64,000 nucleotides of DNA from an uncultured Gemmatimonadaceae bacterium (GTDB lineage Bacteria; Gemmatimonadota; Gemmatimonadetes; Gemmatimonadales; Gemmatimonadaceae), in contig CAWHHI010000003.1 of NCBI GenBank assembly GCA_963829055.1, positions 518,540-582,539 of the forward strand, given 5' to 3'. Under the pieces are notes generated by a model. That model was given only the letters and a program-made list of their open reading frames with translations, was not told the DNA's origin and made no database searches. Below, one piece after another: positions 12,607 through 63,939 of the stretch (position 1 is the stretch's first letter; each line of letters opens with the position of its first letter). The position numbers were made by a program, and so were the translations under genes.

Positions 12607-12610
12607 GCGA

Positions 12611-12655: not shown

Positions 12656-12791
12656 GTCAAATTGCTTGCCCGGCGATTCCGGTGTCTCTGGGCTTGATCT
12701 ATCTCCAATGCCTGAATAGATTTGCGGTTCTTTTCCTGATGTTTTGGTCTCAGTAGCTCGTCATAACAAAAAGAGCAGATTGGAGCTTTAA

Positions 12792-12956: not shown

Positions 12957-12960
12957 CGGG

Positions 12961-13305
12961 CTTCGATTCCCGCGCGGCCAGCGGATAACGCGGGGCGCTG
13001 ACCTTCAGCGTGCCGCAATAAAGGGGAAGCGCTTTCGGACCAAACATCTCGAGGTCCGAATTCTCGCTTCCCCTCTGCCTCATCCGCGGGTTGGGTTCAT
13101 CGTGCCCAAGTTCGGGCATTCTTCCGTCGAACGAAATCGACTCAAACGTCAGCTTCGCGAGATCGTTCGAACGCGCATACTGGGAAACCTTCCCGCACTC
13201 GATGTCGTGATTCGTATACGACCGAGTACCTACCACACGCAATTCTCGGTGCTCGTCGACGAACTGGGCGAAAGCGCCAGAGTTGCTCGGGAGTATGCTC
13301 CGTGA
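12961..13305 (+). CDS. rnpA: Ribonuclease P protein component (start codon unclear)
   Basis: [16 protein letters not shown]...[26 protein letters not shown] (RNR motif); syntenic between rpmH and yidD. Confidence 0.92.
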
Positions 13306-13517
13306 TCGCCAAGCGGATCCTCGTAGCAGGGGTTCGATTCTATCAGCTGGCGCTCTCGCCGCTACTGCCGGCGTCATGCCGCTACTTTCCAACTTGCTCA
13401 GCCTATTCAATCGAGGCGCTGGAACGACACGGTGCTCTTCGAGGAACATGGCTGACGATCCGTCGTATCGCGCGGTGCCATCCCCTTCACGCTGGTGGCT
13501 ATGATCCGGTCCCGTAA
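13302..13517 (+). CDS. yidD: Membrane protein insertion efficiency factor
   Basis: [22 protein letters not shown]...[17 protein letters not shown]. Confidence 0.96.
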
Positions 13518-13546
13518 CCTCGGTTTCGTGATCAGGCCTGGACGCA

Positions 13547-15253
13547 ATGGACAAACGGTTTCTACTCGCACTCATACTGACGGCGGTGGTGGTCATTGCA
13601 ACGCCGTGGCTCTTTGGAACACAGTCGTCGCTCACCAATACCAAGACCGGCACTGGCGTCCCGAAAGCTGACTCCAGCAATCGCGCCGGCTCAATTCCGA
13701 CAGCGGTTCCCGTAGAGCGGGACACATCCAGACCAGCGGTGGCGAGTACGCCTGCTGCTGAGAATGTGCCTGCTACATCCACTGCCGCCGTCCCGGAGAC
13801 GACGGTCGTCTCCACGCCCTTGGCCAACTACCGATTCAGCAGTCTGGGAGCGATGCCGCTCTCGGTCGAACTGAAATCGTACAAGGCGCTGGACGGCTCA
13901 AAGCAGAATGTCCGCCTGGGAAGCGCGTCGAACCATCTCCTGGCGTACCGATTGTTTCTGCCAGGTGACACCATCGCGCTGAGCACAGTGCCGTTCAGTG
14001 TGGAGCAATCGCGTTCCGCAACGGGCTCGGATGTGCTGACGTACCGAGCCGCTATTGCCGGAGCGGCACTGACGATTCGTTATGCATTTGCTCCCGACAG
14101 TTACCTCGTACGAATCTCTGGCGAGGTGCAGCATCCATCGGCGCCGAATGGCTTTCTTGCCATCGAGATGCCGTCGAATCTGCATTCGTCTGAAGCCGAT
14201 TCACTCGACGATCAACAGCACCTGGCGTACGCGGTCAAACCGCAACGTGAGAACGCCCGAGGAATTCCGTTCAGCAAGCTCGATCCCGGCGAGCGTCGTC
14301 TGGAGTCCGGACCGATCACGTGGGTTGCCGCGAAAAACAAATACTTCATTGTCGGACTCCTGACTCCAAATGGGGGAGTTCCGTTTGCAGAAGTCGGTGT
14401 TACCGGTGGTCCTCGAACGGGTAAACGCGCGACACGCGCCGCAGCTCTCGCGGTCGAGCCCCTTCGAAACGGCGCATTCGCCTTCGAGCTCTACACAGGA
14501 CCGCAGGAGTGGCGTCGGCTCCTAGCCATCGGTCGCGATTTCGAGAACTCGAATCCGTATGGCGGTTTCTTGCAGGGCGTCGTGCAGCCATTCGCGACGA
14601 TCGTCATGCGCATCCTGCTCTGGATGCGAGCAACCCTGAACCTGAGTTATGGGTGGGTGCTCGTGACGTTCGGAGTTGCCGTTAGGCTCCTGCTCTGGCC
14701 GCTGAATCAGAAAGCGATGCGGACGAGCATGAAGATGAGTCGTGTGCAGCCGGAACTCGCGGAAATTCAGAAGCGCTACAAGTCGGATCCGCAGCGTATG
14801 CAGTCAGAGATCATGCGCGTGTACAAGGAGCACGGAATGAGTCCGTTCAGCTCGCTGTCCGGATGTCTACCGATGCTGCTCCCGATGCCGATTTTGTTCG
14901 CGCTGTTCTTCGTATTTCAAAACACGATCGAATTTCGTGGCGTGCCGTTCTTATGGCTTGCCGATATCTCGCTGAAGGATCCGTTCTACATCGTGCCCAT
15001 TCTCATGGGCGTGTCGATGTTCGCGCTATCGATCATCGGCATGCGTAACTCGCCGCCGAATCCACAGGCGAAGATGATGGCGTACGTGCTGCCAGTGATG
15101 ATGACCGTGTTCTTCTTCAACCTCGCGTCAGGGCTCAACCTCTACTACGCCGTCCAGAATCTCACTGCGATTCCACAGCAGTGGCTGATCTCGAACGAGC
15201 GCGGGAAGAACGCCAGCAAGAATGTGGGAGCACCAGCAGCCGTGCGGACGTAG
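13547..15253 (+). CDS. yidC: Membrane protein insertase
   Basis: N-terminal TM, periplasmic domain, VRLLLWPL, GCLPMLLPMPI, FLWLADISLKDP and SGLNLYY. Confidence 0.97.
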   Translation: MDKRFLLALILTAVVVIATPWLFGTQSSLTNTKTGTGVPKADSSNRAGSIPTAVPVERDTSRPAVASTPAAENVPATSTAAVPETTVVSTPLANYRFSSLGAMPLSVELKSYKALDGSKQNVRLGSASNHLLAYRLFLPGDTIALSTVPFSVEQSRSATGSDVLTYRAAIAGAALTIRYAFAPDSYLVRISGEVQHPSAPNGFLAIEMPSNLHSSEADSLDDQQHLAYAVKPQRENARGIPFSKLDPGERRLESGPITWVAAKNKYFIVGLLTPNGGVPFAEVGVTGGPRTGKRATRAAALAVEPLRNGAFAFELYTGPQEWRRLLAIGRDFENSNPYGGFLQGVVQPFATIVMRILLWMRATLNLSYGWVLVTFGVAVRLLLWPLNQKAMRTSMKMSRVQPELAEIQKRYKSDPQRMQSEIMRVYKEHGMSPFSSLSGCLPMLLPMPILFALFFVFQNTIEFRGVPFLWLADISLKDPFYIVPILMGVSMFALSIIGMRNSPPNPQAKMMAYVLPVMMTVFFFNLASGLNLYYAVQNLTAIPQQWLISNERGKNASKNVGAPAAVRT

Positions 15254-15310
15254 TACAACATTGTTGCTCCGTCCGGCCGCTGGTGTCAGACCTGCAAGGG
15301 AAGAGAGTCG

Positions 15311-16126
15311 ATGCGGATTACATACATCGGCCACGCGACTCTTCTGATCGAACTCGGTGAGCGACGATTCCTCACCGATCCCAACTTCGACGACACCCTT
15401 GGGCGCTTCCTCCCAAGGGTCAGCAAGCCAGGCATCGCGCTGTCCGAGTTGCCCGAGCTCGATGGGATCCTGCTGACGCATGCGCATGCGGATCACCTGT
15501 CGTTTCGATCGCTGGCCAAACTGCCGCGCAATATTCCGCTCTTCGCCCCGCCGGCGGTCGCCACCTGGCTGATTCGGCTCGGATACTCCCACGCCCGCCC
15601 GCTGCCCGCTGACGGACAGGTCGGTGTCGGTGATGTGGTCATTCACGCTGCAGCGGCAACACACGAAGGCAGTCGCTATTCGGTCGACAGATGGCGAAGT
15701 GCCGCGAACATGTATCTGCTGGATGCGGGCGCGGAAACCTGTTTCTTCGCTGGCGACACCGGCCTAATGCCGGATACGGATCGCGTCGTGCGCGAGATCA
15801 TCCACGACACCGGCCGTGAGCTCGACGTCGCACTGCTGCCGATCGGATATGCACCGTGGTGGAAACCCGGATTTCGACGCGGACACCTGAGCGCCGCCGA
15901 CGCGCTGCAGCTGTTCGACCGACTGCGGGCGCGTTACTTCATCCCGTACCACTGGGGTACGTTCAACCACGTGACATCTGGGGCGTACGACGCGATCAAT
16001 AGATTGAAGTCACTACTACCCGCGTACCGCCGGCGCACGGATGTTCGCATCCTGGAACCTGGCAATGTCCTCGAGCACCGCCCCGTCCAGGCAAACGAAC
16101 AGCGTGCGAATACCGCTCCCGGGTGA
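15311..16126 (+). CDS. Metallo-beta-lactamase fold hydrolase
   Basis: YIGHAT, LTDP, THAHADH, FAGDT, LLPIG and PYHWGTF. Confidence 0.9.
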
Positions 16127-17480
16127 AGACGAAACGATCGTCGCTCTATCGACAGCTCCCGGGCGGAGTGCGATTGCGGTCGTTCGTCTCTCCGGTGCTG
16201 CAGCGTTTGCCGTCGCGGAGAGAATCGTCCATCCATGGCCACTGGAGCCGCGACGTGCGGTGCTGTGCCGTGTTTCGGACGCGGCCGACAAGACGCTGAT
16301 CGATCATGCTGTCGTCTCGTCTTTTCCGGCACCACGGTCATACACAGGCGAGGATGTCGTCGAATTCTCGAGCCATGGCGGACACGCTGTCCCCGATGCG
16401 CTCATAGGAGCACTCCTCCGTGCGGGGGCGCGGGAAGCACATCCGGGTGAGTTCACGAGACGTGCGCTGCTCAACGGCAAGCTCGATCTCGTGCAAGCCG
16501 AAGCGATCGGTGATCTGATCGACGCGTCTTCGGAAAGCATGCGCCGACTGGTGTTACACCAGTTGGATGGCGGGCTCTCTCGTCAGATTTCAGAAGTACG
16601 GAGTCGTCTCCTCGACCTCGAAGCGCTGCTCGCGTACGACATCGACTTTCCCGACGAAGACCACGGGCCGCTCAACCGCACGAGAATCAGCGACGCTGCA
16701 GATGCCGTGCGGACGGCGTTGAGACTTCTGCTCGATACAGCTCCCGCTACGGAACTCGTGCGAGACGGAGCCATTGTCGTGATCGCCGGCCGACCCAACG
16801 TTGGGAAATCATCACTGTTCAACGCGATAGTGGGCGAGATGCGCGCGATCGTCACCGATATTCCGGGCACGACGCGAGACGCCATCGAAAGCCGAGTGCA
16901 GCTGAACGATTGGCCGGTTCGCCTCGTGGACACGGCGGGTCTGCGAGTAACAGACGAGCTCGTAGAGCGACTCGGCATCGAAGTCAGTGAGCGTTACCTC
17001 GCGAGTGCGCACGCTGTGATCGCCTGCGACGACAACGCCGAGCTTCTCCGTCAAACCGTCGCGTCGGTTCAGACACTCTCCTCGGCGCCCGTGGTTCCCG
17101 TGCTCACCAAGTCTGATCGAGATGCTGGTTCAGCAAGCGCAGCAGTGGGCGGCGGACACCAGCCGGTCCGTGTCAGCGCTCACACGCGAGACGGAATTCA
17201 ACCGCTCGCGTCGCGGATCGACGCGCTCTTGAGTGACCGCTACGGAACCATCCCAACGACGCGGCCCGCGCTGACGCGTGCGCGGCAGCGCATTGCAGTC
17301 GAGCGAGCGCTGAACGAGCTCGACGCATTTCGCGAACACTGGATAAGCGAGGCACTGCCCGCATCGGTGGCCGCCGTGCACATCAGAGCGGCTGTGTCCG
17401 CGCTCGACGAGCTCATCGGCGCAGTGGATGTCGATGACGTACTGGGCCGCTTATTCGCGACGTTCTGCATTGGGAAATAA
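16065..17480 (+). CDS. mnmE: tRNA modification GTPase
   Basis: [45 protein letters not shown] and C-terminal FCIGK. Confidence 0.97.
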
Positions 17481-47969: not shown

Positions 47970-48042
<73 letters not shown>

Positions 48043-48573
48043 TTCAAGCAGGACAACAACTTAGATGACCATGGCGCGGCCGGTCGCGCGACACCCGTGC
48101 GGGAGTATATGCGGGAGTCGCATGCCGACTCGGCCGCGCTACGTTTCCGTAAACGCGACAATGCATTGAGCAGCATGAGCGAAGGACTCACGCCTGATGC
48201 CGGATCGGGTGTTTACCAGGCAAGCCGGATCACTGACAGCGAGCGGTATCTGACGGCACCGTCGTTTTCGTCCTGGCGGCGGATGTGACGTTCTACTAAC
48301 TCGCGACGGCGTTTCAGCTCGACTTCAGTGCACAGAGGCGATGTACCTCGACGGGGCTGTATCGCGACCGTACGCCCGCGGGGTTACCGGCCCGCCTTCG
48401 AGCGGGGATGCTTTCGCCGCGCTCATAGCCGTTCTGGCCAAGGATTGAACGGCAGTGCCGAACTGGAGTTATGCAACGTCGTGATTTCCTGTGCCTAACG
48501 GTAGCCTCGTAGTATCGCAGGTCACGCTTGGCACCGCCGCGACCGGTAGGCGGCCCACCTCGTCGCGCCATCC

Positions 48574-48646
48574 TGTCCAGCAGCAAGAACGCGTCGCCGT
48601 ACTGGAGCGCCACGTTCAGGTCATGGAGCACCGCGATCACGCCTGT
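48574..48646 (-). pseudogene. Fragment of an iron-complex ABC transporter ATPase
   Basis: GVIAVLHDLNVALQYGDAFLLLD matches the FecE/HmuV-type H-loop region; no Walker A or signature motif nearby. Confidence 0.55.
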
Positions 48647-49762
48647 GACCTTAGAGGCGGTCACTCTCCGAACAGGAGATAACATCCGTGGTTCTTTGCC
48701 GCTCCGTGTGGATGAAAGGACTTCAGTCACGTATCCGGAGTGGCAGTCCGTCGTGCGGGAGGGTGAGCCCGGCACCCCGGCAGCTTACTTCTCGGACGGG
48801 CTCCGACACAGCGAATTGAAGCTGCGCGCTTCCTTCCGACAGAATGATGGGGCGGTTCACGCCTTTCGCGTTCGTGCTACCCCGACGTCCACGAAGGCCG
48901 GCCTACTCGGCAACGTGGTAGAAAGTCCGCTGATCGAGTTCGACACAGCGGGTCTTGCGTCCAACGTCGAGCTGTCACTCGCGAACGGGCGTACGAGTTC
49001 CAGTCCTGTAGGCATCTACCCGGTGGAGTGGACTTGGGAATGCCAAGTCCAGCGAATGGGCAACTAGGGTAGCTGGAAGGAGATAGGCCGTAGCCGACAT
49101 CGCGTCTATTTGCTGCTCGATGAGTCACACGGCCCGTGGACGACTGACGCGAACTCGCCGAACGGTCTGTGGACCGAACTCTTGGACGTCGCGTGCGCCT
49201 GGGCCGCGGGTGCGAGGTCACCAGAGCAAGTAGCGGCGGGCATAACGCGAGGTTTAAGCGAGGCGGCGCGTCAGCCGCACGCTTCTGGCGGCACCGTCTT
49301 CTCGTACGACACGAGTTCCGGCTATTACCAAGACGCCCTTTACAGGGCATTCGAGAACACGATCACCCTGCCGCAGTTCTTCATGGCTGACTGGCTCGCG
49401 CGTCTTCGGGGCGAACAGTCGCGGGGGGCTACAATGAACTGCTACGACTGCGCCAACGCAGTTGCCAGTCTTGCCAACGCACTGGGGTGTCGCGCTGAAG
49501 TCGTGAGCATCCTGGTCGACCGGCCGGGACAAATCCCCCTAACTTTTCCACACGCCCCGTGTCTCTTATCGGAGAGCCCGCGAACCATCTGGCCGTGCGC
49601 AAGTTTCCCGTGCATGCGGTGGCATGCGTGGCAGGTCCTACACGCCACGGGAAAGCGTTCGATGCATGTGTGAGCCTCGCAGGAAGCCGCGGAGGGGTCG
49701 CGGGATTGCCGTTCTCGGGTGAACCGGGAGGATACCCTTTCCGCCGTCGTCGCAGCCCCTGA
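48645..49762 (+). pseudogene. Transglutaminase/papain-fold-like protein interrupted by an in-frame TAG (49065-49067) and a frameshift (~49530)
   Basis: ORFs 48528-49067 and 49110-49673 share a frame with sensible sequence across the TAG. NCYDCA is followed by FPVHAV and FDAC in the next frame, giving a Cys-His-Asp order. Confidence 0.6.
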
Positions 49763-49822
49763 CGTTCCAAGCGTGTATCTCATGGCCGCCGCGCTTCCGC
49801 CGGTTGTCGTACCAAGAGTGCG

Positions 49823-50112
49823 ATGAAAGCAAGCTTCGCCTCCTGCCGCGTCTGGGTCGGCGACGCCGAGGTCACAGCGCACCTGTTCGTCTGCACGTTA
49901 TTCTACTCGCGCCGACTCTACCCGGAGGCCTTCCCTCACGAGCGGCTCGGCGCCGTCTTCGAGGGCCACGAGCACGCCTTCCGGCACTTCGGTGGCGTGC
50001 CGGCCCAGGTCGTCGTGGACAACGCGCGACCGGTGGTCCTGCGCCACGACCGCGACGCGGAGACGGGGCGCCACCGCGTAGTCTGGCACTCGACGTACGC
50101 CGACTTCGCGGC
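49823..50112 (+). pseudogene. IS21-family transposase (IstA) fragment, central integrase core
   Basis: LFVCTLFYSRR...AF...HEHAFRHFGGVP..VVVDNA. Confidence 0.88.
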
Positions 50113-50221
50113 TAGGCTTTGATCGTTCGCCGATCAGCTCCCGCGGATTAGCGCGTTTCATGCTACACGGCTTCGCCAGGGTGTGGCGTATCCGGCCTCT
50201 CATTCACCGGCAGGAGGCATT

Positions 50222-51613
50222 GTGCGTCTTGGCATGCTCGAAGTAGCGAGGCTCATGTCCGCGCTCATCGCGGCAGTTACGGTTGCGGCGTGCAACAACG
50301 ATGACAATGCAGTTCAGCCGACAACCCAATCGTACACGCTCGCCGTCGCCAACGCGACGGTGACCACAGCGCCGGGTGGAACGGCGACGCAGACCGTCAA
50401 CATCACGAGAACGGGCGGCTTCACCGGAGCTGTCGCGCTCACCGCCACGGGCCTCCCGACAGGCGTGACAGCAGCGTTCGATCCGCAAAGCGCCACCGGC
50501 AACTCGTCGACCCTGACGCTCACTGCCGCCGCCAACGCAGCACCAGGGAACGCAACGGTCACGGTGAAAGGGACGGCAACGGGACAGGCCGACAAGACCG
50601 TCACGTTCCAGCTGACGGTCAACGCCGCACCGGCCGGCGGGTTCACACTGGCCGCGAACCCGGCGACACTCACCATTCAGCAGGGAGCGGCCGGCACATC
50701 GACGGTGAACATCACGCGGACCAACGGGTTCGCTGGCGCCGTCACGCTCACGGTGACCGGTCTGCCTAACGGCGTGACGGCCACGTTCAATCCCGCGGCG
50801 CCGACGACAAACTCCTCGACGCTGACGCTGACGGCATCGGCGACCGCGGCGACCGGTTCAGCCGCCGTGACGATCCGCGGGAACGCGACAGGGCTGACCG
50901 AGCAGACGACCACGCTCGCCTTGACCGTGAACGCCCCTCCAGCCGGTGGCTTCACGCTGGCGATGAACCCCGCGGCGCTGACGGTGGTGCAGGGTCTCTC
51001 CGCCACCTCCACCGTGAACATTACGAGAACCGGTGGATTTGCCGGCTCGGTCAGCCTCACGGCAAGCGGCCTGCCTAACGGCGTGACGGCGGCGTTCAAC
51101 CCGACGGACGCCACGGGGGCGACATCGACGCTCACGCTCACGGCGTCGGCGACGGCTGCGATCGGCACCGTAACGGTCACGATCAAGGGCACGTCGCAAG
51201 GTCAGACCGATCAGACCACGACGCTTGCGCTCACCGTCAACATCCCGGGCAGCTTCTCGCTGGAAGTCAATCCGAAGACGCTCACGATTCAGCAGGGAGC
51301 GAATGGCACGGCGACGGTGACCATCACGCGAACGGGCGGGTTCACCGGCGCAGTCACGCTGACCGCAATCGGCCTGCCTAACGGGGTGACGGCCACGTTC
51401 AACCCGGCCGCACCAACCACGGACCAGTCGACGTTGACGCTCACCGCCTCGGCGACGGCCGCACCGGGTTCGACGACCGTGACGATTCAGGGGAACGGGA
51501 CGGGTCTCGGCGAACACACGACGACGATCACGCTGATTGTGAGCAGTCCGGCAGGGAGCAGCGGGAATGTCGGTGCGAGTACGGGAAGGTCCTCGACCGG
51601 GAGCTCACCGTGA
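50222..51613 (+). CDS. Lipoprotein with four ~100-aa Thr/Ala-rich Ig-like beta-sandwich repeats (C-terminus possibly truncated)
   Basis: AGGAGG before GTG 50222; lipobox VAAC; four repeats of TVNITRTGGF.G.V.LTA.GLP.GVTA.F.P...STLTLTA. Confidence 0.85.
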   Translation: MRLGMLEVARLMSALIAAVTVAACNNDDNAVQPTTQSYTLAVANATVTTAPGGTATQTVNITRTGGFTGAVALTATGLPTGVTAAFDPQSATGNSSTLTLTAAANAAPGNATVTVKGTATGQADKTVTFQLTVNAAPAGGFTLAANPATLTIQQGAAGTSTVNITRTNGFAGAVTLTVTGLPNGVTATFNPAAPTTNSSTLTLTASATAATGSAAVTIRGNATGLTEQTTTLALTVNAPPAGGFTLAMNPAALTVVQGLSATSTVNITRTGGFAGSVSLTASGLPNGVTAAFNPTDATGATSTLTLTASATAAIGTVTVTIKGTSQGQTDQTTTLALTVNIPGSFSLEVNPKTLTIQQGANGTATVTITRTGGFTGAVTLTAIGLPNGVTATFNPAAPTTDQSTLTLTASATAAPGSTTVTIQGNGTGLGEHTTTITLIVSSPAGSSGNVGASTGRSSTGSSP

Positions 51614-51746
51614 TCCCGCTCTAGCGCGTGTCCGGACCGACGGGCGGCCGCATGCTGGCCGACCGCTGACTCGAACGAGCGACGGGCGCGGCTCCTCGGA
51701 GCCGCGCCCGTTTGCTTTCTTCCGACTGAGGCGTAATAACGGACCG

Positions 51747-51905
51747 GGGGTCAAGTACGTGCAGCGGAACGCGCTCGCCGGGAAGCGCTTCCGGTCGTGG
51801 GAGCATCTGAACGCGTGGCTGCTCGAGTGGGCCACGACGGTCGCCGACACGCGCGTGCACGGGACGACGCACGAGGTGCCGCGCGAGCGCTTCGCCCGGG
51901 AGGTG
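51747..51905 (+). pseudogene. IS21-family transposase (IstA) fragment, downstream part
   Basis: GVKYVQRNALAGKRFRSWEHLNAWLLEWATTVADTRVHGTTHEVPRERFARE. Confidence 0.88.
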
Positions 51906-52066
51906 AATCAGCCAACGATCATCGGTGGGGACCATTGAGCGCACCCCAATGCCCACCTCTGTCGAGGCCCCCGTGTCCTGAGGCCGTCGTCGTGGCAATG
52001 CGGGTTCGGGGTTGCGGTGCTACATGGGCGGACCATCTTGTTCGACTCTCCGTCTGAGCCATACCC

Positions 52067-55000
52067 ATGTCGCGCGCCGTATATGCCCTCCTGGTCGGGA
52101 TCGACGAGTACACCTCGCCAGTGCCGCCTCTCAAGGGCTGCGTCAACGACATCACAGCGGCGGAGCTGTACCTCCGCGATCGCTACTCCGGTCAGGCAAA
52201 CGCGCTCGACATCGTTTCGCTGACCAATGCTTCCGCTACTCGTGATGCGGTCATCGACGCCTTTCGCCGCCAGCTAGGCCGAGCCGGAGCCGACGACACC
52301 GCTCTGTTTTACTTCAGCGGACACGGGTCGCAGCAACCCTGCGCACCAGAACTGCTCTACCTCGAGCCGGACGGAATGGACGAGACGCTCGTCTGCTACG
52401 ACAGCCGTATTCCGGATCAATACGACCTCGCTGACAAAGAGCTCGCGGGGCTGATCCACGAGGTTGCCGCACGCGGCGCGCACGTCGTCGTGATACTCGA
52501 TTGCTGCCACTCAGGGAGTGGTACGCGCGCGCTCGAGACGGCAGTGCGACGCGCGCCGACGGACGATCGTCCGCGTCCGCTCGACAGCTACATAGTCGAT
52601 CCGCGACGACCGGTCAGCACGACCAGGCGTGACGCACCCAGCAGCACGAGCGGCTGGGCTCAGCTGCCGGAAGGCAAACACATTCTGCTTGCCGCGTGTC
52701 GTGCCGACGAGCGCGCCCAGGAGATCCCGTTAGGCGGCAGCCGACGAGGCGTTTTCTCCTACTATCTGCTCGACGCGCTCGCGCGGGCGCGCGGCGCGCA
52801 GACGTACGGGTCGATCTTCCGACGGGTCAAGGCGCTCGTGGAGCAGAAGGTGTCGTCACAGTCGCCCGAGATCGAATGGAGCGACGCCGACGAGCTGAAT
52901 CAGCCGTTCCTCGGCGGCACGGCCGTCGCGGAGGAGCCGTACTTCGTGCTGCGATATGACCCCGAGCTCGGATGGGCGATCGATGGCGGTGCGGTGCACG
53001 GGATCCAGCCGGCCGACGGCGATGAGACGACCACGCTGGCGATCCATCCGTTCGACATGCGAATGGACGCGAGGCGTGACACGAAGCCGTTGGCGACCGC
53101 ACGCGTGTTCGAAGTCCAGCCGCACGTGAGTCGCGTAGACATCGACGTAGCCGACGTTGAGCTCGACGAGACGCAGACGTACGTGGCGGTCGTCATCGGC
53201 GTGCCGCTACCGCTCCTGGGTGTTGTCATCGACGGCGATGACGCAGGCGTACACGCCGCGCGTCAGGCATTGGCGACCGCGGGGCCCGACGGCGGGGCTT
53301 CGATCTATGTACGCCTCGCCTCGGATGCCGCGACCGCCGAGCTCCGGATTCACGCAGAAGCCGAGCGCTACACGATCATGCGCGCAACCGGTGATCGTCG
53401 TCTCGTCGGCGACGTTTCGGGCTACGACGCGGATGTTGCGTTGCGCGCGATCCGGCGAGTCGAGCACATCGCGCGGTGGACGACAATTGCGCGGTTGTCC
53501 AATTCTGGCAGTGGTATTGCGCCTGACGCGATACAGCTCGAGGTGCATCGCGTCGTCGGGACGGCCGTGAAGCGGTCCTCGGTCGATGTGCCAACGGAGC
53601 TGGTGCCGAGTGGCCGTGAATTGCGCTTCGAGTACGAGTACCGGGGCGGCAGGTGGCAACCACCATCGTTCAAGATCAAGCTGCGCAACGATGGCGATCA
53701 GCCTTTATGGTGTGCGCTGCTGACGCTCTCCGAGTCGTTCGAGGTAAACGCGAAGGGTCTGCTTTCGGCGGGCAGGGTACGGCTCGAGCCAGGGCAGGAG
53801 GTGTGGGCCAAGCAGGGACAGCCCATCAGCACCGGCGTTCCAGAACCACTCTGGCGCGCGGGAGTCACAGAGCGGCGCGACGTCGTCAAGCTCATTGCGA
53901 GCAATCGCGACTTCAACCCGTCGCTGTTGGAGCAGGAGAAGCTCGACACGCCGAGAACCGCGGGAGCCAAACGCGCGGTTCCGGGGCGGAGCTCGCTCGA
54001 CAGGCTCATGGCGCGGGCGGACACACGCGAGTTCCTGGACAGTGATTCATCGTTCGCGGACTGGGTGACGTCGGAGCTGTCTATTACGACCGTGCGTCCG
54101 CTCGACAGCGTGGCGCTCGCTGACGGGCGGGCAGTCGAGGTCACCACGGGCGTGACGCTCGAGCCACCAGCCGGGTTTCGGGCACGCGCACGCCTAACGA
54201 GCGTATCCGACGGCGGTCGAGACCTCGGCAACGCGCTCGTGCCGCCCATCCTTCGTGACGCGGCGGTGAGCGAGCCCTTTGGGTTCTCGACTGCGCGTGG
54301 CAGTGACCCGGGTCTCACCGTTCTCGAGCTGATCGACGTCGCCGATCACACGGTGGTGACGCCGGAGGCGCCGTTGACTGTCGTGATCGACGCGGGCAAC
54401 GCGCGTGACCTACCGACGGTGGGCGATGCTAGTGTAGCGCATTTGCTTCCCGTCGCGTTCGATGGCGAGTTCTATCTGCCGCTCGGGCACGCGACGTCTC
54501 GTGACGGGACCGTCAGGGTCACGCTCGACCGGTTGCCGGCGCCGGTCGCGAGCGACCGGAGTCTCTCCGGTTCCATTCGGATCCTGCTGCACAAGGTCGT
54601 GAGCAAGGTGCTCGGGACACCCTACGAGTATCCACTTCTCACGGTGGTCGATATCAACCTCGATGGCACGGTCACGTACGTGAAAGACCCGTCGGCGGTG
54701 CGGGCGCGTGTGACCGACGCCGACCGGGTGCTGCTCTACGTGCACGGGATCATCGGCGACACGCGTGTGATGGCGGCGAGCGCGTACACGCCTAACGCCG
54801 TCGGAATACTCGGCGTGCCACCTCTGGCCGATCGGTACGATCTCGTGCTGGCGTTCGACTACGAGAACGTACAGACATCGATCCAGGACACCGCGCGGAC
54901 GCTGGGCAAGCGGCTGGCGGATGTGGGGCTCGGTGCTGGCCACGGCAAGACGCTCCACGTGATCGCCCACTCGATGGGCGGGCTGGTGTCACGCTGGTTC

Positions 55001-55573
55001 ATCGAGCGGGAGGGCGGTCGAGCGGCGGTCCAGCGGCTGGTCACGGTGGGCACACCTAACGACGGATCGCCGTGGTCAAAGGTGGAGGATGTCGCGACGA
55101 CGCTGCTGTCACTTGCGCTGAATGGCATCGGCGCGTGGCCGGCGACAGTGCTGGGCGCCTTGGTGAGCGGCGTCGAGAGGGTGGATGTGACGCTGGACTC
55201 GATGCAGCCGGGCTCCGAGCTGTTGAAAACGTTGTGGGCGAGCGATGATCCCGGCGTGCCGTATACGCTCATCTCGGGAAATACGACGCTCATTGCGACC
55301 GTCGTGACGGGTGACAATCGAGTGGCGCGGCTGCTGTCACGTGTCCTCTCGCCGTCGGCGCTGCATCGGGTGGCCGGGCTGGCGTTCTTCGGCGAGCCTA
55401 ACGACATTGCCGTTCGCGTCGAGAGCGGGCATCGCGTACCCATGACACGAACCCCTCGCCCTGTGGTGGTCCAAGTCGCGAGCGATCACCTGTCGTACTT
55501 CCGCGATCCGGCAGTGCTTCGCGCGCTCGCCGACGCGCTGCCGCGTGGAGCGACAGCCGAGGCGGTATCGTGA
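52067..55573 (+). CDS. Caspase-like (C14) protease fused to a C-terminal PGAP1/lipase-like alpha/beta hydrolase
   Basis: YALLVGIDEY, LKGCVND, YFSGHG and ILDCCHSG (intact His-Cys dyad). C-terminal VHGIIG, IAHSMGGL, GTPNDGS, NDIAV and DHLSYF. Confidence 0.92.
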   Translation: MSRAVYALLVGIDEYTSPVPPLKGCVNDITAAELYLRDRYSGQANALDIVSLTNASATRDAVIDAFRRQLGRAGADDTALFYFSGHGSQQPCAPELLYLEPDGMDETLVCYDSRIPDQYDLADKELAGLIHEVAARGAHVVVILDCCHSGSGTRALETAVRRAPTDDRPRPLDSYIVDPRRPVSTTRRDAPSSTSGWAQLPEGKHILLAACRADERAQEIPLGGSRRGVFSYYLLDALARARGAQTYGSIFRRVKALVEQKVSSQSPEIEWSDADELNQPFLGGTAVAEEPYFVLRYDPELGWAIDGGAVHGIQPADGDETTTLAIHPFDMRMDARRDTKPLATARVFEVQPHVSRVDIDVADVELDETQTYVAVVIGVPLPLLGVVIDGDDAGVHAARQALATAGPDGGASIYVRLASDAATAELRIHAEAERYTIMRATGDRRLVGDVSGYDADVALRAIRRVEHIARWTTIARLSNSGSGIAPDAIQLEVHRVVGTAVKRSSVDVPTELVPSGRELRFEYEYRGGRWQPPSFKIKLRNDGDQPLWCALLTLSESFEVNAKGLLSAGRVRLEPGQEVWAKQGQPISTGVPEPLWRAGVTERRDVVKLIASNRDFNPSLLEQEKLDTPRTAGAKRAVPGRSSLDRLMARADTREFLDSDSSFADWVTSELSITTVRPLDSVALADGRAVEVTTGVTLEPPAGFRARARLTSVSDGGRDLGNALVPPILRDAAVSEPFGFSTARGSDPGLTVLELIDVADHTVVTPEAPLTVVIDAGNARDLPTVGDASVAHLLPVAFDGEFYLPLGHATSRDGTVRVTLDRLPAPVASDRSLSGSIRILLHKVVSKVLGTPYEYPLLTVVDINLDGTVTYVKDPSAVRARVTDADRVLLYVHGIIGDTRVMAASAYTPNAVGILGVPPLADRYDLVLAFDYENVQTSIQDTARTLGKRLADVGLGAGHGKTLHVIAHSMGGLVSRWFIEREGGRAAVQRLVTVGTPNDGSPWSKVEDVATTLLSLALNGIGAWPATVLGALVSGVERVDVTLDSMQPGSELLKTLWASDDPGVPYTLISGNTTLIATVVTGDNRVARLLSRVLSPSALHRVAGLAFFGEPNDIAVRVESGHRVPMTRTPRPVVVQVASDHLSYFRDPAVLRALADALPRGATAEAVS

Positions 55574-58500
55574 CGTTAGCGCCGTCGACAGCGAGTCCGG
55601 GGCTGTGGGTGAATCCGGCGTGGAAGTCAGGCACGCCGGGAACGTTCGCCGTTGTCGTCGGTGCGAGCCGTTACGAGCACCTCGCCGGTGGTCACGGGGC
55701 GCTGGCGACGGACAACTTCGGGCTCACGCAGCTCAGCGCATCGGCGTTGAGTGCGTACCGCTTCTTCGAGTGGTTGCGGGGCGATTACGCAAATGCGGCA
55801 AGTCCGATCGCCATGTGCTGGCTACTGCTCTCGCCGTCGGATGCGGAGCGGTCGGTCGAGCCCGGAATCGCGGAGAATGTGGCTGCGCCGACGTTGCCTA
55901 ACCTGCAGCGCGCGGTAGGCGAGTGGTTCACGGCGATGAAGCAGCTTCCCTCGAGCGCCGCGAAGGACAGTCGAAGCATTCTTCTGGTTCAGCGGTCACG
56001 GATTCGATGTCGGCAGTGAGCACCTGCTGTTGCCTTCGGACTATCTCGAGCCGCCGCTGTCGATGCCGGATCGTGCGGTGTCGGCTCGACGTCTCGTTGC
56101 CGCGATGGAAGCGCTCGAGACGCGAGATCAGCTGTTCTTCCTCGACACCGGGCGCGAGCAGCTGCAGCAACTCCAGACGTTCGGCATTACGGGGATGCCG
56201 CTCCTGCCGGTGCCGATCGCTCGCACTGGCCCGGTCGATCGGATGTCGGTGACCCTCGGCGCCAGCATGCCGTCGGGGCGAGCGTTTCAGCCCGGCAATC
56301 CGAAGGACGGAATTTCGTTCTTTGCGCAGGCGGTGATCGAGGGGCTCAGGGGGGAAGGTGGGCTCAAGCCCGACTGCAGCGTGTCGCCGTGTGTGGTGAG
56401 GTTGTTTCCGTTCGTGAGCTTCGTGCAGAGTCGCGTGCAGCAGGTGCTGAGCGAGTACAACGTGACCGGCCAGGCCGTGAGGCTGCAGCTCGAGGGGTCG
56501 TCGCACGACGTCGTGCTCACCCAGGTTCCTGCGCCTGTCGCGCAGACGGCGCAAGCCCAAACGAGCGCTAACGAAGCTTCGCTGGAGACTCAGACCGTAT
56601 TGGCGGCCACACCCACGGTGGACGCCGCGCCGACGTATATGGTGGCAGCCACCGCGGCCATCGTGACGCAGGGCGCGACGGGCACCAGCACGATCACCAT
56701 CACGCGAACCGCCGGCTTCGCCGGCAACGTGGCGTTAGCCGCCGAGGGGTTGCCGACGGGCGTCACGGCCGCATTTACGCCTAACAACACGAACACGAAC
56801 GGATCGGTGCTGACGTTGACGGCTGCCGCGAATGCCGCCGTTGGCACGTCGACCATCACCGTGCGCGGCACCGCGACCGGGCAGACGGACAAGACGACGA
56901 CCGTCCAGCTCACCGTGAGCGCCGCCGGTGGCGGGGCGAGCTTCTCGGTCGCAGCCGGTGAAGCGAAACTTGACAATGCCTATGCGCTACTGATCGGTGT
57001 CGGCGGCGCGTCGGAGAAGGACACGGCGCTCATTCGGGACGTTCTCGTCGACCAACGATACGGCGGCTACGGCGAAAATCGCGTTAGGCGTATAGTCGGC
57101 TCCGAGGCCAACCGGGAAGGGATTGTCGCGGCGCTTCAGGAGCTCGCGTGGATCACCGCGCCTGGTGAGCGCATCCTTATCTACTGCTCGAACCCGGGCA
57201 CGCAAGTTCCGGCGTCAAAGGGCCCCAATGCGCTCGAGAGCGCGATCGTTCCCGCGGACTACGAGGAGGGGGGATTCGTCCCTGCGTCGGAGCTCGAGCG
57301 CCTGCTCGACGCGTTGAGTGGCAGGAGTGTTCTCTTCCTCGCCGACTACGCCCACGCAGCGCGCGGCCTCCGCATGGGCGCAGGCCACGTCGCGATTGCG
57401 GTCGGCGCGGAGGGGATGGCGCTCGAAGACTCGAACGCGACAGCCGACACGGCAAGCGGCCGATATGCGCGACAGCTCACCACGGGGCTGCGGGGCGGGG
57501 CTGCGGGGTTGGATGGAACGATCAGCAGTCTGGATCTGTTCGAGTACATGTCCACGAGGCTGTGGAACGATGAGGATCGGGTGGTTCTGGTCGGGGATAC
57601 GGCGGCCGATTTTGTGATAGCGTCGGGATCGTCGCCCGACTCGCCTGCTGCGCCGGCGTACGACGATGACTTCCAATACGACGTCTATGTGAGCGCGGCG
57701 GACCGCAATGCCACGACGCTCCACAGTCGCGTGCTCCCGCGGCTGATCCAGGCTGGCCTTCGGATCGCGATACTCCCGGCGATCGACACCAAACGCGGCG
57801 ATACCGATCAGCGGGCCGGCGTACGCCATGTCGCGACCGCGGAACGTGGCATTGCGCGGTCGCGTCGGACGCTCGCGCTGTTATCGGAAGTGTACGTGCG
57901 CACCGTTGCGCGTACACTGGGGAGCGTGTTCGACCGTGCGTTAGGCGCCGGGGAGGGCCGAGACCGTCTGTTGGGTGCTCGATTAGGCCGGTGGGCAACG
58001 GCACGCGCACTCGCCGACATGCGGCTACCGTCAGTGCTCGGCGATCCAGCCCAGTGGGTCTCGGTCAAGAACGCGCTGGATCTGCTCGTCGGCGACACGA
58101 CAAACGAGCCGGACGCCGACGATCGAACCGACGCCGAACCCTCGACGGACACGGAGCCCGGCTCGTACGCGCTCGTCATCGGCATCGATACGTATCAGAA
58201 ATCGATGGCTCTCCGTGGGTGTGCACAGGACGCAAAACTCATTGCCGAATTACTCTCGAATGGTGGCCCAGGATCGTCCGCGTACGACGTGCGGCTGCTC
58301 ACCGACGGTGATGCGACGCGCGAGGGAATCCTCTCCGCACTGCACGAGGTCGCGGAAAAAGCGACGAGCGACAGCACCGTTCTGATCTTTTTCGCCGGGC
58401 ATGGTGCGGACGCGGGCGACGCCGGCGCCTCGGCGATCGAGCCGACTGAAAGTGCGCTCGTCGCGGTCGACTACACCGAAGCGGATCCACGGCTGGTGAC

Positions 58501-60871
58501 GACGGCGGATCTCGAGGCGGTTCTGGCAGACATGTCTGCACGGCACATCGTAGCCCTGGCCGACGCGAGCTATGCCAATCGCATCATGCGCGGCGGGACG
58601 GGCCGAGTGCTCGTGTCCGCCGGGCGTGAAGGCGAAGTGGCGTACGAGAGTCGTGACCGCGATGCCTCAGGGGTCGGCGAGTTTTCGAGTGCCGTCATCG
58701 ACGGGATCCGTGGGGGCGCATCATCGGCCGATGGGCTCGTGCGCGTGCTCGACCTGTACGAGTTCGTCCACCGGCGTGTCGTGGCGAAGGGTCTACAGCA
58801 CCCGTACGTTGGCGGCGACCTGTCGACAAACGTAGCGGTTGCCGTGTCGCCTAACGAGATGCCGCGTGATCCGGCGGCGGGTGCGGACGGTTATCGCTAC
58901 GATGCGTACCTGAGCTTCGTGGGTGACGACGCGTCACTCGTGTGGAACGAGCTCGCGCCGCGTCTCGCCACCCTCGGGCTACGAATCGCGGTGTCGCACG
59001 ACCTCGAGGACGCGCGGTTCTACCGTGTCGCGACACCCGAGCGCGGTATCACCCAGGCGCGGCGCTCCATCGTCGTCGTGTCGGCAAAGTCGTTGGCGGA
59101 GTCGACGGCGGAGTTCGAGCGGTTGGCGGTGGCGACCATCGGGCTCGACGGAGCGGCCGCACGCACGCTCCGCATCACCACGAGCGACGATCTCGCACAG
59201 CAGATTCGCATCGAGCCACCGGTTCGCGAGTGGCTGCGGCAGGCGCCCGGATGGACGTTAGGCGCGTTGCTCGAGCGCGATGAGCAACTCACCGACCTGG
59301 TCGATCGACTGCGGGCCCCGATCGAACCGGCGGCCGCACCCGCGACGATCTTCATCAGCTACAGTCGACACGATAAAACGGCGGCGGACCGGCTTGCTGC
59401 GGCGCTACGCGGCGTCGGGTACAACGTGTGGCTCGATCAGGAGCTCAACGCGGGAGAGACGTTCCAGGCGACGCTCGAGCGAATGATCGCGGAGTGCACG
59501 ATCTTCATCCCGATCCTGTCGATAACGAGCCTCGGCCGCCAAACCGGGTATTACCTCGCCGAGTGGAATCTGGCACTCGAGCGGGGACGTCGGTCTCCGG
59601 AGTCGCGGTTCATCATTCCCGTCGCAATCGATGACGTCACCCCGACGTCGTTCTCTGAGGCGGTGCCACGCGAGCTAGCCGCGATTCAGTGGAGTCGATT
59701 GCCGAACGGGGAGGCGTCGTCGCGTTGGCTCGCGATGATCGCCGAACTCGTTCAGCGTACCAGGGCGCCGGCGGATACACCGTCCGAATCCGGTGACGCA
59801 AGCGCCCACACGATACCGCGCGAATTGCTCCCCAGGCTGTCATCCTCGTCGCGGCGAGCGCTGCTGAGCGCGGAGGGATACCGGCGTGCCGGCAACGCGG
59901 CGGTCGTGGACACGGGGCACCTGCTTGGCGGGTTATACGAGAAGCCGGAAGGCTGGGCTCATGCGGTGATGCAAGCCGCAGATTTCGACGGATCGTGGGC
60001 AGGGCTGTTCACCGTGGGTCTCGGGGAGGGTCTCCACTCGTCGGGAGCGGCGCGCGCACCATCGAGTGCGCTCGAGACCATGCGGATCTCGCGGGCGGTA
60101 CTGGCTGCATTGACCGAAGCGGGACGACTCGCCGACGAGAATCGTGCAACGACGATACAGGCCCGATATCTGCTGGCCGGCCTACTCGGCGTATCTAACG
60201 AGCCGGCCGCGGTGTGGATGGCGGACCGTGTCGAGCTCGATGTCGAGGCGTTGCGGCGTCTCATTCTCGCGGCCGTCGAGGGGTCACCACCGCTGGACGA
60301 CGTGCGGCGTCTTCGGCGTCGAGGCGCGCGGCTGGTGCTCGCGCCGGACCAGGCGCGGGCAGGGGCGCCAGTCTACGCGGCCGCGTTCAGCCCCAATGGC
60401 GCGTCGCTCGCAACCGCGCACTATGACGGCGGCGTTAGGCTCTGGAATCCAGCCGACGGGACACTCATGCGACTGCTCGGGGCGACAGGAGAGGAAGGGC
60501 ACGGCTGGGTCAACTGCCTCGCCTGGTCGCCTAACGGCGACGCCCTCGTGTGGGGGACGCAGGACGGCTCGATTCTCTTCTGGGACGCACGCACCGATGC
60601 GGTGGGGACGATTCCCGGTGTGCACGATGGGCAGGTCGTGTCCATTCGGGTGAGCCCCGACGGGCGGCTGCTCGTCTCGACGGGAGGAGACAGCTCCGTG
60701 CAGATCCGCGACTGGACCGACAGAGAAATGTTGGGTCACGGGGCAGGAGTGTATCCCGTCCAGCGCGGGATCTCCGGGATCGAATTCAATGTCGATCGCG
60801 GTCTGGTCTTCGTCGCGTCGCCGGACGGAAGCGTGACGCGATTGCCACCGTCGGCGCCGGGGTGGGCGTGA
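55570..60871 (+). CDS. Multidomain protein part 1: pseudo-caspase / Ig repeat / pseudo-caspase / TIR / pseudo-caspase / TIR / TIR / Clp-N / WD40 (+1 frameshift at ~55981)
   Basis: GTGA-coupled start. TFAVVVGASRY, then after the shift FWFSGHG...LLLPSDY...FFLDTGR; AYALLIGV; YDVYVS; YALVIGID...FAGHG...ADAS; YDAYLS; IFISYSRHD...YYLAEW; TGHLLGGL and ARYLLAGL; AFSPNG..LATA..DG.VRLW. Confidence 0.85.
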
Positions 60872-62013
60872 GCTCGGCACCGACGAATTCTGCGCCGGGC
60901 GTGGCCATGCGAGCGGCGAAGACGAGCGATGGCAGCCGAATGGTCATCGCCGGGCCAGGGGAGGCGATCAGCGTCGTTGCCCTGGAGACCGGCCGGCCGA
61001 TCGCCACGTTCGAGGGGGGCCACGCCACCGACGTCCTCGCCGTCGCGGTCACCCCGGACGATCGGCTTGTCGTCTCCGCATCGGAGGGGGGTACGATCCG
61101 CGTGTGGGAGCTCGACGGCGGACGCCTAACGCGCACGACCGAGCCTCGCGCGGGACCGCTCTGGACACTTCGTCTGGTCGAAGATGGTGACATTGCCATC
61201 GTCGGTGCGAGCGACGGGGCGCTCGTCGTCGTCGACATCACGGTCGGTCGAGTCATCCGCAGCATTCAGGCACACGACGGCGGCGTCAACGCGCTGGCCG
61301 TCTCGCCTGACGGCCGGATGCTCGCGTCCGCCGCAATGGATGGGACGACGCGCATCTGGGATCTCGCGAGTATCGGAGCCGTGCGACCGGAGCCGATCGA
61401 CCGGCGGGTAGCCCTGGCGGCAATCGAGATCGCACGCGGCGACCTGCTCGAGCGGGACGAGGACGCGCTCGTCTACGCCGTTGGCCTCGACCCACAGAAC
61501 GGCGGCATGATCGGCAATCGGCTCGCGCGCATGCTGGAGAGGCCCCAGCGCGAGAACATGGTGCAGCGACCGGCGCTCAGGTCTCGTGAGGCACGCGCGA
61601 TCCGGATGGACTCGGGCGCGCTACGAGCGAAATACGTCATTCAGACGGCGACCGAGGAGGAGCGCGGGCATGAGGAGATGCACTCGCGAGAAAGCATCAC
61701 GGACGCCGTCACCTCCGCGTTGGAGGTCGCCGAGTCGTTAGGCAATGTGCGGTCGGTGTCGTTGCCGAGTGTTGGGACGGGGGCGGCTGGGTTCGATCCT
61801 GCCACACTCGCCCCGGGCATTCTCGAGGCGATCGTGCGGCACCTGGAGCGTGGCAGCTATCTCGAGCACGTGACGCTCGTGTTCAACAACGAGGCGCACG
61901 AGCGCGCTTACAGCGACGCGCTCGCGTCGTTGCGCGCCGGCATCGAGCGCGACCAGGCGGCAGCGTCGGCCGCGACAGCCTACGTGCTGCAACTCACGCG
62001 GCCACGGAGATGA
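60868..62013 (+). CDS. Multidomain protein part 2: WD40 repeats + macrodomain (separate GTGA-coupled gene or frameshifted continuation)
   Basis: GHATDVLAVAVTPDD and AHDGGVNALAVSPDG..LASAAMDGTTRIWD; IEIARGDLL, GALRAKYVI and SVSLPSVGTGAAGF. Confidence 0.82.
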   Translation: MSSAPTNSAPGVAMRAAKTSDGSRMVIAGPGEAISVVALETGRPIATFEGGHATDVLAVAVTPDDRLVVSASEGGTIRVWELDGGRLTRTTEPRAGPLWTLRLVEDGDIAIVGASDGALVVVDITVGRVIRSIQAHDGGVNALAVSPDGRMLASAAMDGTTRIWDLASIGAVRPEPIDRRVALAAIEIARGDLLERDEDALVYAVGLDPQNGGMIGNRLARMLERPQRENMVQRPALRSREARAIRMDSGALRAKYVIQTATEEERGHEEMHSRESITDAVTSALEVAESLGNVRSVSLPSVGTGAAGFDPATLAPGILEAIVRHLERGSYLEHVTLVFNNEAHERAYSDALASLRAGIERDQAAASAATAYVLQLTRPRR

Positions 62014-62038
62014 ATCGGCTCCGGTAACGGTCGGCGAT

Positions 62039-63939
62039 GTGATCACCCTCCGTCTCGAGCTCCGACGCGCGTTTGTTGGGGAACAGGGCATCGCACTGCC
62101 GTCGAGTGCGGGAGAGGTAAACTGCTTCGTCACTGGGGATGCGGGGCTCCGGCTCGAGAGCGCCGAAGCGGTCGCGCTCCGGCTGCCGTCGGACGGAGCC
62201 GTCGCGGCGGGAGAGATCCGGTTGCGGGCGCATCTCGTCGGTGAGCGACGGTATACCGTCGAGCTGTATCTGGACGGCTCCGGGTCGGACTCAAGGTCGC
62301 TGCGCGAGTTCAGCGATACGGTGTCGGTTGCCGCACCCATCGCCGCGTTTCGACCCGAGATACTCCCGCCGCTGGACCTGCGGGTTGCCGCACGTCCGGA
62401 TGTTGTGCTCGAGGTGACCGCGACCAGCGCGAACGGGTCGGGTGGTGCACACCGCCTAACGTACCGGCTCAGCTCCCGGGTGGCCGGTGCACAGTTCGCG
62501 GCCGCGCTCGCCGGCGTAGTGGACGTCGGGCCAGTGGAGCGCAGCCGCATCCGGTCGCTGGTTCGCGATGCCGTCCGGATGTCGACTGCCGAGCAGCCTG
62601 AGGACTCGCGAGCGCGGATGGTAGCGATCGGCACGTATCTCTACGATCGATTCGTTCCGCGCGAGGGCGCAGGGGAGCTTCGCGAGATGATCGAGCAGCT
62701 CGAGACGGCGCGTCGGAATCGCATCACGACAGCGACGAAGCCGGAGCGGCCGCTCACATGGCTCATCATCGAGAACGGGACTGAAGCCTCGCTGCCGTGG
62801 GAGCTGGTGGTGCCTTACGAGTCCAACTCTCCCGGCGCGCAATTCCTCTCGGAGTGGTGGCAGATGAGTCACTGGCTCGTGGGGCTCGGTCCGCCGCTCC
62901 AGAGCGAGGTGCCCGTCGGAGATGTGGCACTCATGTATTACGGCCAATCAGTGGACGAGACCGACGACGCTCGGCAGTTAGGCGCGTGGGGACGATTGCT
63001 GAACGCGAGCATGGCCAGCGACATCAAGCAGGTGGCGGCGCCGGAAACGCCGGTGTACGGGCTACATCTTCTCAGACAGGGTAGGACGGGTGCACTCGGC
63101 ATCGCGCCGCGCGGGGCTGGTCCGGCGACCGACGAGGTTCGCCGGGCGCGACTCGATCTTCGCCTCAAGCGCCCCCTCGTCACGCTCGGTGTTCTCGATG
63201 GCCGGTCGGGCGATGAGACGAATGCGATGGATGCGTCAGCCGTCGCGGACGGCAACTGGCCGCTCGTCGAGCGGGCGCTGCCGTATCTGCGTGCTGGCGC
63301 GAGCGGCGTCGCGGGGGCGTGGTGGCAGACATCGGCAAGTTCCGACCGCGTCTTCTGGACGACCTTCTACGACCTTCTGATCGCCAGGCAGAATGTCGTT
63401 AGGCGAGAGCATCTGGCGCGCTCGGCTCGCGGTTGCGCGGGCGCTGCCGGAACGGTCCGACTGGCTCGCGTACGTGCTATTCGGGAACCCGCTGGCGCGG
63501 CCGTACGTCCCTGCGGAGAGCGAGGGGTACACGACGCTCCAATGTCGATGCCGACAGTCCTCTTCGTGTCGGGAAGGAGTACATCTTCTCGGCATCGATC
63601 CGCACGCGCCCGCCACTCTGGCATCAGGACCGGCTCGTCCGCGTGCAGAAGGACGAAGAAAGTGAGGAGGCGTCGGAGGCGCTCAGTGCTCTGTTTGTCG
63701 CGCCCGGACTGCAGGACGCCGTACCCGAGCCGGTGGCCATGCGACCTGTCGGCCGAACGATCCATGAAGCAACGTGCGCTCTCACGCCGAAGCAACCGGG
63801 TGAGTATCTGTTGACGGTCCGTCTACTCAAGGGTGATGAACGATTGCAGACGCTGCGCCTGCCATTGATCGCCAGTAACAGTCGGCCGACGAACCTCGAC
63901 GGAGAAGCGACACTCGTGTCCGTGGGAGAATCGACGTGA
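62039..63939 (+). CDS. Multidomain protein part 3: beta-sandwich + degenerate CHAT domain (frameshifts at ~63392 and ~63540)
   Basis: IGTYLYDRFVP, LPWELV, FLSE, LHLLRQG, RPLVTLG and YLRAGASGVAGAWW...FYDLL, then SLGESIWRAR...WLAYVLFGNP in the next frame. Confidence 0.75.

Follow-up and report, generated by a model that had tools for sequence, protein, structure and literature searches.

Catalytically dead caspase-family domains beside one intact caspase-hydrolase in a putative lineage-specific immune operon of an uncultured Gemmatimonadaceae bacterium

Why would a three-gene operon harbor four caspase-superfamily domains without a catalytic cysteine right next to a caspase that is intact? The question is raised by a 64,000-nucleotide stretch of DNA from an uncultured Gemmatimonadaceae bacterium (assembly GCA_963829055.1, contig CAWHHI010000003.1, positions 518,540 to 582,539), hereafter the window, the end of which is the end of the contig (C3); the genome comprises 7.8 Mb and is 86% complete. 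An initial annotation had reported the loss of Cys in all four domains and its retention in the neighboring caspase, and the motifs it quoted are all present at or near the places assigned to them. Thus, domain A combines SGHG (55991-56002) with DTGR (56144-56155), i.e., His is kept and Cys is replaced by Gly, the domain reading DTGRE where its family has DACRN. Domain B displays YCSNPG (57182-57199) and ADYAH (57341-57355), with Pro for His and Ala for Cys; domain C has AGHG (58394-58405) and ADAS (58559-58570), with His kept and Ser for Cys; the CHAT-like domain shows LHLLRQG (63062-63082) and VTLGVLDG (63179-63202), with Gln for His and Leu for Cys. With the catalytic columns placed by profile and pairwise alignments, the His-Cys dyad expected of an active caspase-like protease is lacking in A, B, C, and the CHAT-like domain, and both residues are intact in the caspase of gene 1 (SGHG at 52316-52327, DCCH at 52499-52510).

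The answer tentatively preferred here, as judged from sequence, is a lineage-specific immune operon in which captured, catalytically dead caspase-family domains would serve as peptide-binding or decoy modules beside TIR domains and a single intact caspase-hydrolase. That the domains are dead and in frame is observed; what goes further we infer, the anti-phage role from the domain content and the position in an island. The operon and its parts are as follows.

Gene 1, 52067..55573, plus strand: 1168 amino acids; caspase (Peptidase_C14) with intact dyad, long middle region, C-terminal alpha/beta-hydrolase.
Gene 2, 55570..60871, plus strand: about 1766 amino acids after correction of the error at 55979; GTGA overlap with gene 1; order A, Ig, B, TIR1, C, TIR2, TIR3, ClpN-like, four WD40 blades.
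Domain A, 55570..56530, plus strand: caspase-like; no Pfam match; plasmid, profile, and fold evidence.
Ig-like repeat, 56600..56930, plus strand: one copy, 54-63% identical to the repeats of the lipoprotein gene at 50183-51613.
Domain B, 56960..57625, plus strand: caspase-like; the most eroded copy, with 8 of 22 conserved columns kept.
TIR1, 57665..58100, plus strand: degenerate (TIR_2 E 0.002); Asp in the place of the catalytic Glu, as read by eye.
Domain C, 58151..58840, plus strand: caspase-like (PF00656, 2.8e-16); 17 of 22 conserved columns kept.
TIR2, 58892..59310, plus strand: Glu of the EFE motif kept, as in the Calothrix caspase-TIR protein.
TIR3, 59342..59760, plus strand: well conserved (TIR_2 5e-22), Glu present (YYLAEW).
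Helical repeat, 59810..60310, plus strand: weakly ClpC N-terminal-like; top PDB match ClpC (E 0.063).
Four WD40 blades, 60330..60860, plus strand: first half of a propeller, blades counted by eye.
Gene 3, 60868..63939, plus strand: about 1023 amino acids after correction at 62006, 63392, and 63546; GTGA overlap with gene 2; order four WD40 blades, macro, beta-sandwich, CHAT-like, beta-rich tail.
Macro domain, 61399..62004, plus strand: PF01661, 5e-7.
Beta-sandwich and CHAT-like domain, 62015..63545, plus strand: Atlas CHAT clusters 0.92-0.93; CHAT profile E 4e-11.

In the assembly, five open reading frame (ORF) pieces are found, with five frame breaks across genes 2 and 3. The stretch is partly present in 24 public DNA runs of 15 named studies, mostly of soil and rhizosphere, and short-read contigs from eight of the 24 runs were aligned to it; one of the best-matching runs may be the source sample. 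These contigs contain one base fewer at 55979 (X1, X3, X5), 62006 (X1, X2, X4), and 63392 (X2, X3, X11) and two extra bases at 63546 (X2, X3). Since each change restores the frame, these four breaks represent assembly errors. The remaining break, at 60868-60871, is a GTGA stop/start overlap covered gap-free by one X3 contig (60717-61068), like the GTGA overlap that joins gene 1 and domain A. The X3 contig supports two genes instead of the single scaffold of the initial annotation: gene 2 encodes A, B, and C and gene 3 the CHAT-like domain, so one scaffold of 2,800 amino acids was ruled out on the strength of this one contig. An eight-blade WD40 propeller is apparently split 4+4 over the overlap (60330-61380), making a two-chain propeller or a -1 frameshift possible. 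The N-terminus of gene 2 agrees with the A-family consensus. The published gene 3 protein is a frameshifted form of 591 amino acids; hence, the architecture is invisible in databases.

The short-read contigs also bear on the motifs themselves. DTGR of domain A is unchanged in a spanning contig of run X5, both motifs of B in X1 (ADYAH also in X10 and X11), and both CHAT motifs in X1, X2, and X3; ADAS of domain C is spanned by none of the short-read contigs listed, and no variant is listed there. Between 53956 and 61744, the window differs recurrently from the short-read contigs by A for G, many times in a CAATG context, and these differences look like systematic long-read miscalls. The contig stops about 60 bases past gene 3, with no obvious continuation at other contig ends of the genome among ORFs of at least 280 amino acids. 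No RNA run is among the listed holders of the stretch, which is uninformative on expression.

Membership of A, B, and C in the caspase superfamily (clan CD) is indicated by profile or fold matches. A caspase profile built from 102 domains of fetched loci recognized A (E 2e-16), B (E 2e-18), and C (E 1e-43). In plasmid searches, domain A matched a Deinococcus caspase at 37-41% over both halves, which are contiguous there. The AlphaFold2 (AF2) model of its C-terminal half (pLDDT 79) gave MALT1 paracaspase as the best Foldseek matches (E 4e-3), with none below E 0.001 and cFLIP at rank 22 (E 1.7). For the CHAT-like domain, homology to PF12770 proteins was detected by profile, Atlas, and a full-length alignment with WP_245117608, with no Pfam match; over its length, it scored 167 and 105 against two Hymenobacter CHATs, the shuffled maximum being 55. 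The second of these alignments places Gln on His and Leu on Cys, and the CHAT of locus L019 agrees for Cys; the first one gaps differently, which leaves the register of the CHAT-like domain less secure than that of A, B, and C. A single-sequence AF2 model of this domain (pLDDT 34) was discarded.

Against this background, the loss in domain A stands out. Cys is kept in 41 of 41 A relatives (33 database and 8 plasmid proteins) and in 172 of 172 database relatives, 171 of which show His as well, the remaining one being truncated. The nearest relative, among the matches listed (the best 150 of 13,440 obtained with the A query in a 1.8-billion library), is 44% identical. Intact homologues had been named in the initial annotation as the sign of simple decay; they do exist, but since the A relatives are at most 44% identical, a lineage-specific loss is indicated and not recent decay. 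Domain A, whose branch amounts to 1.34 substitutions/site, keeps 44 of the 53 columns that reach 85% conservation in its family, for which the median is 50 and the tenth percentile 47; of its nine changed columns, three fall in DACRN, and Cys is the sole fully invariant column of the family that has been lost. Other searches yielded little: word-index homologue searches with A and with the CHAT-like domain, both weak tests, found nothing past the window's own proteins; the half of A and the CHAT query returned only noise from the phylum genomes; the A profile found there one contig-end fragment (G094) and generic caspases. The single metagenome match to the N-terminal half of A was spurious, lying in an unrelated papain-like ORF.

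Domains B and C probably have another origin. B-TIR1 and C-TIR2, which share 33% identity, are the products of a tandem duplication of a gene resembling the caspase-TIR gene BAY66897 of Calothrix (DCCH), and B and C are sister copies with an ultrafast bootstrap (UFBoot) of 96 in a 42-row tree (branches of 1.66 for B and 0.72 for C), so the losses may represent three events, not four. The copies are 2.4 substitutions/site apart and both dead, suggesting that the dead state is old or has arisen twice. Both copies retain Asp in two columns that show no variation among the aligned caspases (25 of 25) and presumably form the S1 pocket; C also lacks S-G after the Cys position. Overall, the idea of repeated loss with preserved fold motifs holds for the motifs (the 44 columns and the MALT1-like half of A) but perhaps not for four independent losses, B and C being duplicated.

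The frames, too, have been preserved. In a neutral-decay model of substitutions over 2782 codons (indels were ignored; hence, it is conservative), the chance of three Cys losses without any stop peaks at 1.5e-6 and that of four at 6e-8. With a joint P of at most 1.5e-6, plain pseudogene decay is excluded and genes 2 and 3 are under selection as proteins; selection for a role in each dead domain is left unproven by this test, relaxation limited to single domains fitting it too. In codon adaptation, the dead domains (0.07-0.18) resemble gene 1 (0.13). As expected of a pseudoprotease under selection, the frame is open and the fold conserved despite lost catalysis.

Dead domains of this kind are scarce in the material compared. 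Among 102 caspases, 95 possess His and Cys, five lack Cys, and two are unaligned at His; among 56 CHATs, 54 have both residues and one shows a loss; since the profiles were seeded with active members, dead ones are undercounted. Elsewhere in the genome, the caspase on contig C11 and nine CHATs keep both residues, ruling out a genome-wide loss of catalysis, and a weak caspase-like match on C16 is without Cys. Dead-beside-live cases in the sampled loci (L033/L034, L019, L089/L090, L050) suggest that one dead neighbor is not rare and that four per operon are. In L033 (from 9893) and L034 (from 7216 onwards), a conserved dead caspase (AGAG, DAST/DASA) with a C-terminal region precedes two active caspase genes; in L089 and L090 (G305 and G029, of the window's family), the dead caspases (DAGF, DASF) are conserved and carry repeated tails rich in Gln/Gly; in L019 (6331-9674), an active CHAT and a gene 1 orthologue come immediately after a dead CHAT (HFIGAG, LSGR).

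If the operon works as preferred here, domain A and the CHAT-like domain would stem from modules that pair a protease with an alpha/beta-hydrolase, whereas a caspase-TIR gene would have been the source of B/C. The grooves of the dead domains might bind, with no cutting, the zymogen linker of the live caspase or a phage anti-protease protein; the binding, or its loss, would cluster the NADase domains TIR2 and TIR3 and license the live caspase and hydrolase, and the infected cell would be killed.

Several observations weigh against this proposal. None of six congeners (77-92% complete) yielded the locus, nor was the set detected with the A and CHAT queries in 400 phylum genomes or among the 172 A relatives; it is known from one near-clonal species only. 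Domain B is eroded in its conserved columns and its branch is long in comparison with C, and the columns retained by A fall below the tenth percentile of its family, as relaxed selection would also give. No sensor or phage target was found at the locus, with the contig ending just past gene 3. At the same time, the erosion of B, the apparent Asp-for-Glu of TIR1, and the loss of motifs in the macro domain (YAVG and GGMIG where the genome's own macro protein has NAAN and GGGVD) fit deliberate disarming and relaxed selection alike.

The main rival, which comes close, is quite possible, if somewhat doubtful: the protease domains may be vestigial passengers, i.e., folded spacers in genes whose retention is due to TIR3, the WD40 propeller, or further parts, their activity having been lost since misfiring proteases were toxic or unneeded after fusion. 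The graded erosion (B > A > C), the degeneration of macro and TIR1, the confinement to a single lineage, and the compatibility of the neutral-decay test with relaxation of single domains are in line with it, as is the recent shuffling to which the inserted Ig repeat and the neighboring split istA attest. It explains less well why the cores are conserved on long branches, why none of the four domains was lost in frame, why B and C retain the acidic columns, and why Cys is the only fully invariant column missing from A.

A bolder version of the preferred reading appears unlikely: three immune modules unrelated to one another (A-type, caspase-TIR, CHAT) would have supplied proteases that were captured, disarmed, and set as bait on TIR/WD40 proteins. 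A phage inhibitor directed at any one of these protease families would then trip the TIR NADase and the live caspase-hydrolase. Integrated decoys operate in this manner in plant NLRs.

Rather unlikely is also a cFLIP-like arrangement in which a dead domain heterodimerizes with the live caspase domain and switches its activity on or off. cFLIP is a dead caspase fold next to a live caspase, and the analogy was drawn in the initial annotation; it has gained no specific support, and there are no death-fold recruitment domains here. Translational coupling of the three genes by GTGA overlaps and the near-complete caspase core of C speak for such a partnership, and dominant-negative regulation is among the options in the available text of Kaur et al. 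2020 (PMC7159879); cFLIP itself is mentioned in the accessible part of PMC8195603. The relatives of gene 1 point elsewhere. Gene 1 matches PF00656 (7e-21), DUF7379, and Abhydrolase_1 in Pfam and the PADLOC “caspase” model at 3.6e-42 (amino acids 4-577), and its hydrolase carries the Ser-Asp-His motifs AHSMGG, EPNDIAV, and SDHLSYF. The dyad motifs occur in 10 of 10 full-length orthologues checked, and none of 45 loci with gene 1 orthologues contains an A or CHAT-like match, making the heterodimer less likely. Among the loci whose neighbors were scanned (including L011-L016, L018, L021, and L023), what comes after the orthologue is TPR-CHAT genes, their His and Cys motifs present, in L012, L014, L015, and L016, a CHAT in L023, nSTAND1-WD40 in L021, DUF2252 and caspase-nSTAND1-WD40 genes in L011, and genes without a Pfam match in L013 and L018. 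The active TPR-CHAT genes, as in a cleavage cascade, point to activation by cleavage rather than dimerization; moreover, the subfamilies of A, of B/C, and of the partner are distinct.

That not all four are dead, with an altered chemistry performed by C, where Ser replaces Cys and His is kept, or by A, where His is kept too, is very improbable. A and C do retain G-H-G as well as the Asp that precedes the nucleophile; however, A has Gly at the nucleophile position, B and the CHAT-like domain are without both residues, C has lost S-G as well, and among bacterial caspases presumed to be inactive, a change from Cys to Ser is the most frequent one in the available part of PMC3501461. Broken relics or miscalled motifs are the least probable, and largely refuted, explanation: for all the five frame breaks, the A-for-G miscalls, the propeller split at 60868, and the Ser codon of C lacking a spanning contig among those listed, four breaks vanish in short-read contigs, the motifs of A, B, and CHAT recur unchanged, and the frames are free of stop codons at a negligible joint probability.

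The preferred reading has precedents in part. Inactive caspases beside an active caspase and a hydrolase are already known: according to the available portion of Kaur et al. 2020 (PMC7159879), about 70% of the effector-position caspases in VMAP systems are inactive, with decoy, dominant-negative, and peptide-binding roles proposed. The MoxR-vWA-VMAP ternary systems described there are alike in that large mosaic proteins combine inactive caspases with effector domains, TIR among them, and have an active caspase and an alpha/beta-hydrolase as neighbors. Unlike them, the operon has four dead domains from three protease subfamilies, one being a CHAT. The window, in which the contig ends just after gene 3, contains no vWA, MoxR, or VMAP genes; VMAP-C and TCAD7 gave no match in this genome, in searches with silent controls. 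The architecture was not found in the literature searched, as far as the texts were available, and the source data of Kaur et al. could hold it. Decoy or regulator roles of inactive enzyme domains in bacterial immune proteins are, in the accessible texts, predictions so far.

The cascade from SAVED-CHAT to PCaspase (Steens et al., 10.1101/2023.06.23.546230, available part) is similar in that the N-terminal part of gene 1 matches the PADLOC model and its orthologues adjoin active CHATs. In contrast, the neighboring CHAT is dead here, gene 1 carries a hydrolase, and no SAVED, PCi, PCk, or CRISPR genes are present; an active CHAT activator with SAVED is thus missing, there being no SAVED match. 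The zymogen modules of caspase and alpha/beta-hydrolase (Evans et al. 2025, PMC12642450, in the text available) are alike in kind: A-family and related CHAT genes adjoin alpha/beta-hydrolase-like, MBL, or other enzyme genes, and domain A overlaps the stop of a gene ending in a hydrolase. In the operon, however, the protease is dead and the hydrolase, DUF7379/PGAP1-like, is fused to its own caspase. As to p20 domains without the dyad, the available texts put them at 8.6% (Klemencic et al. 2019, PMC6426788) and 16% (Asplund-Samuelsson 2012, PMC3501461) of bacterial homologues; these pseudo-orthocaspases form conserved clades, mostly with Tyr/Ser, 90% of them in Alphaproteobacteria and Cyanobacteria, unlike the four different, lineage-specific substitutions clustered in one operon here.

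Searches with Thoeris profiles found none above the cut-off (ThcB4, 30 bits vs 220). Type IV Thoeris (10.1101/2024.10.24.620036) reportedly combines TIR with a caspase-like protease; it is similar in uniting TIR domains and a caspase in one operon, whereas the TIRs of gene 2 are fused to dead caspases.

As to the surroundings, the operon is part of an island whose start is marked by tRNA-Phe (47970-48042). A lipoprotein gene with Ig repeats (50183-51613) is situated between two successive IS21 istA pieces (49790-51938); it shares 91% DNA identity with G005:C126, and related repeat genes adjoin TPR-CHAT genes in four congeners. The Ig-like repeat of gene 2 is about 60% identical to repeats in all six congeners; a single repeat of the surface-lipoprotein type is inserted in frame in a cytoplasmic-looking protein (56600-56930), in the place occupied by the C-terminal domain PF27295 in A-family proteins. 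Certain A-family caspases (P0170, P0174, P0176) feature a WD40 propeller between the protease and the C-terminal domain. The helical repeat resembling ClpN has no Pfam or NCBIfam match. Two ORFs (48528-49067 and 49110-49673) seem to be fragments of a single gene of transglutaminase-like type (Pfam E 0.049), and dnaN, dnaA, yidC, and mnmE at 9879-17480 mark the usual origin region within the window. On contig C11 of this genome (G000:C11:138120-145143), a second active caspase gene, which might act as an activator in trans, converges on a CHAT-STAND-like NTPase-WD40 gene that is frameshifted.

Taken together, the locus is a compact one, with four dead domains from three protease families, active relatives that can serve as controls (172 for domain A), and one live caspase alongside. 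It makes the choice between decoy, regulator, and passenger testable by domain deletion. If the domains turn out to be passengers, the operon would be an example of domain shuffling that disarms proteases.

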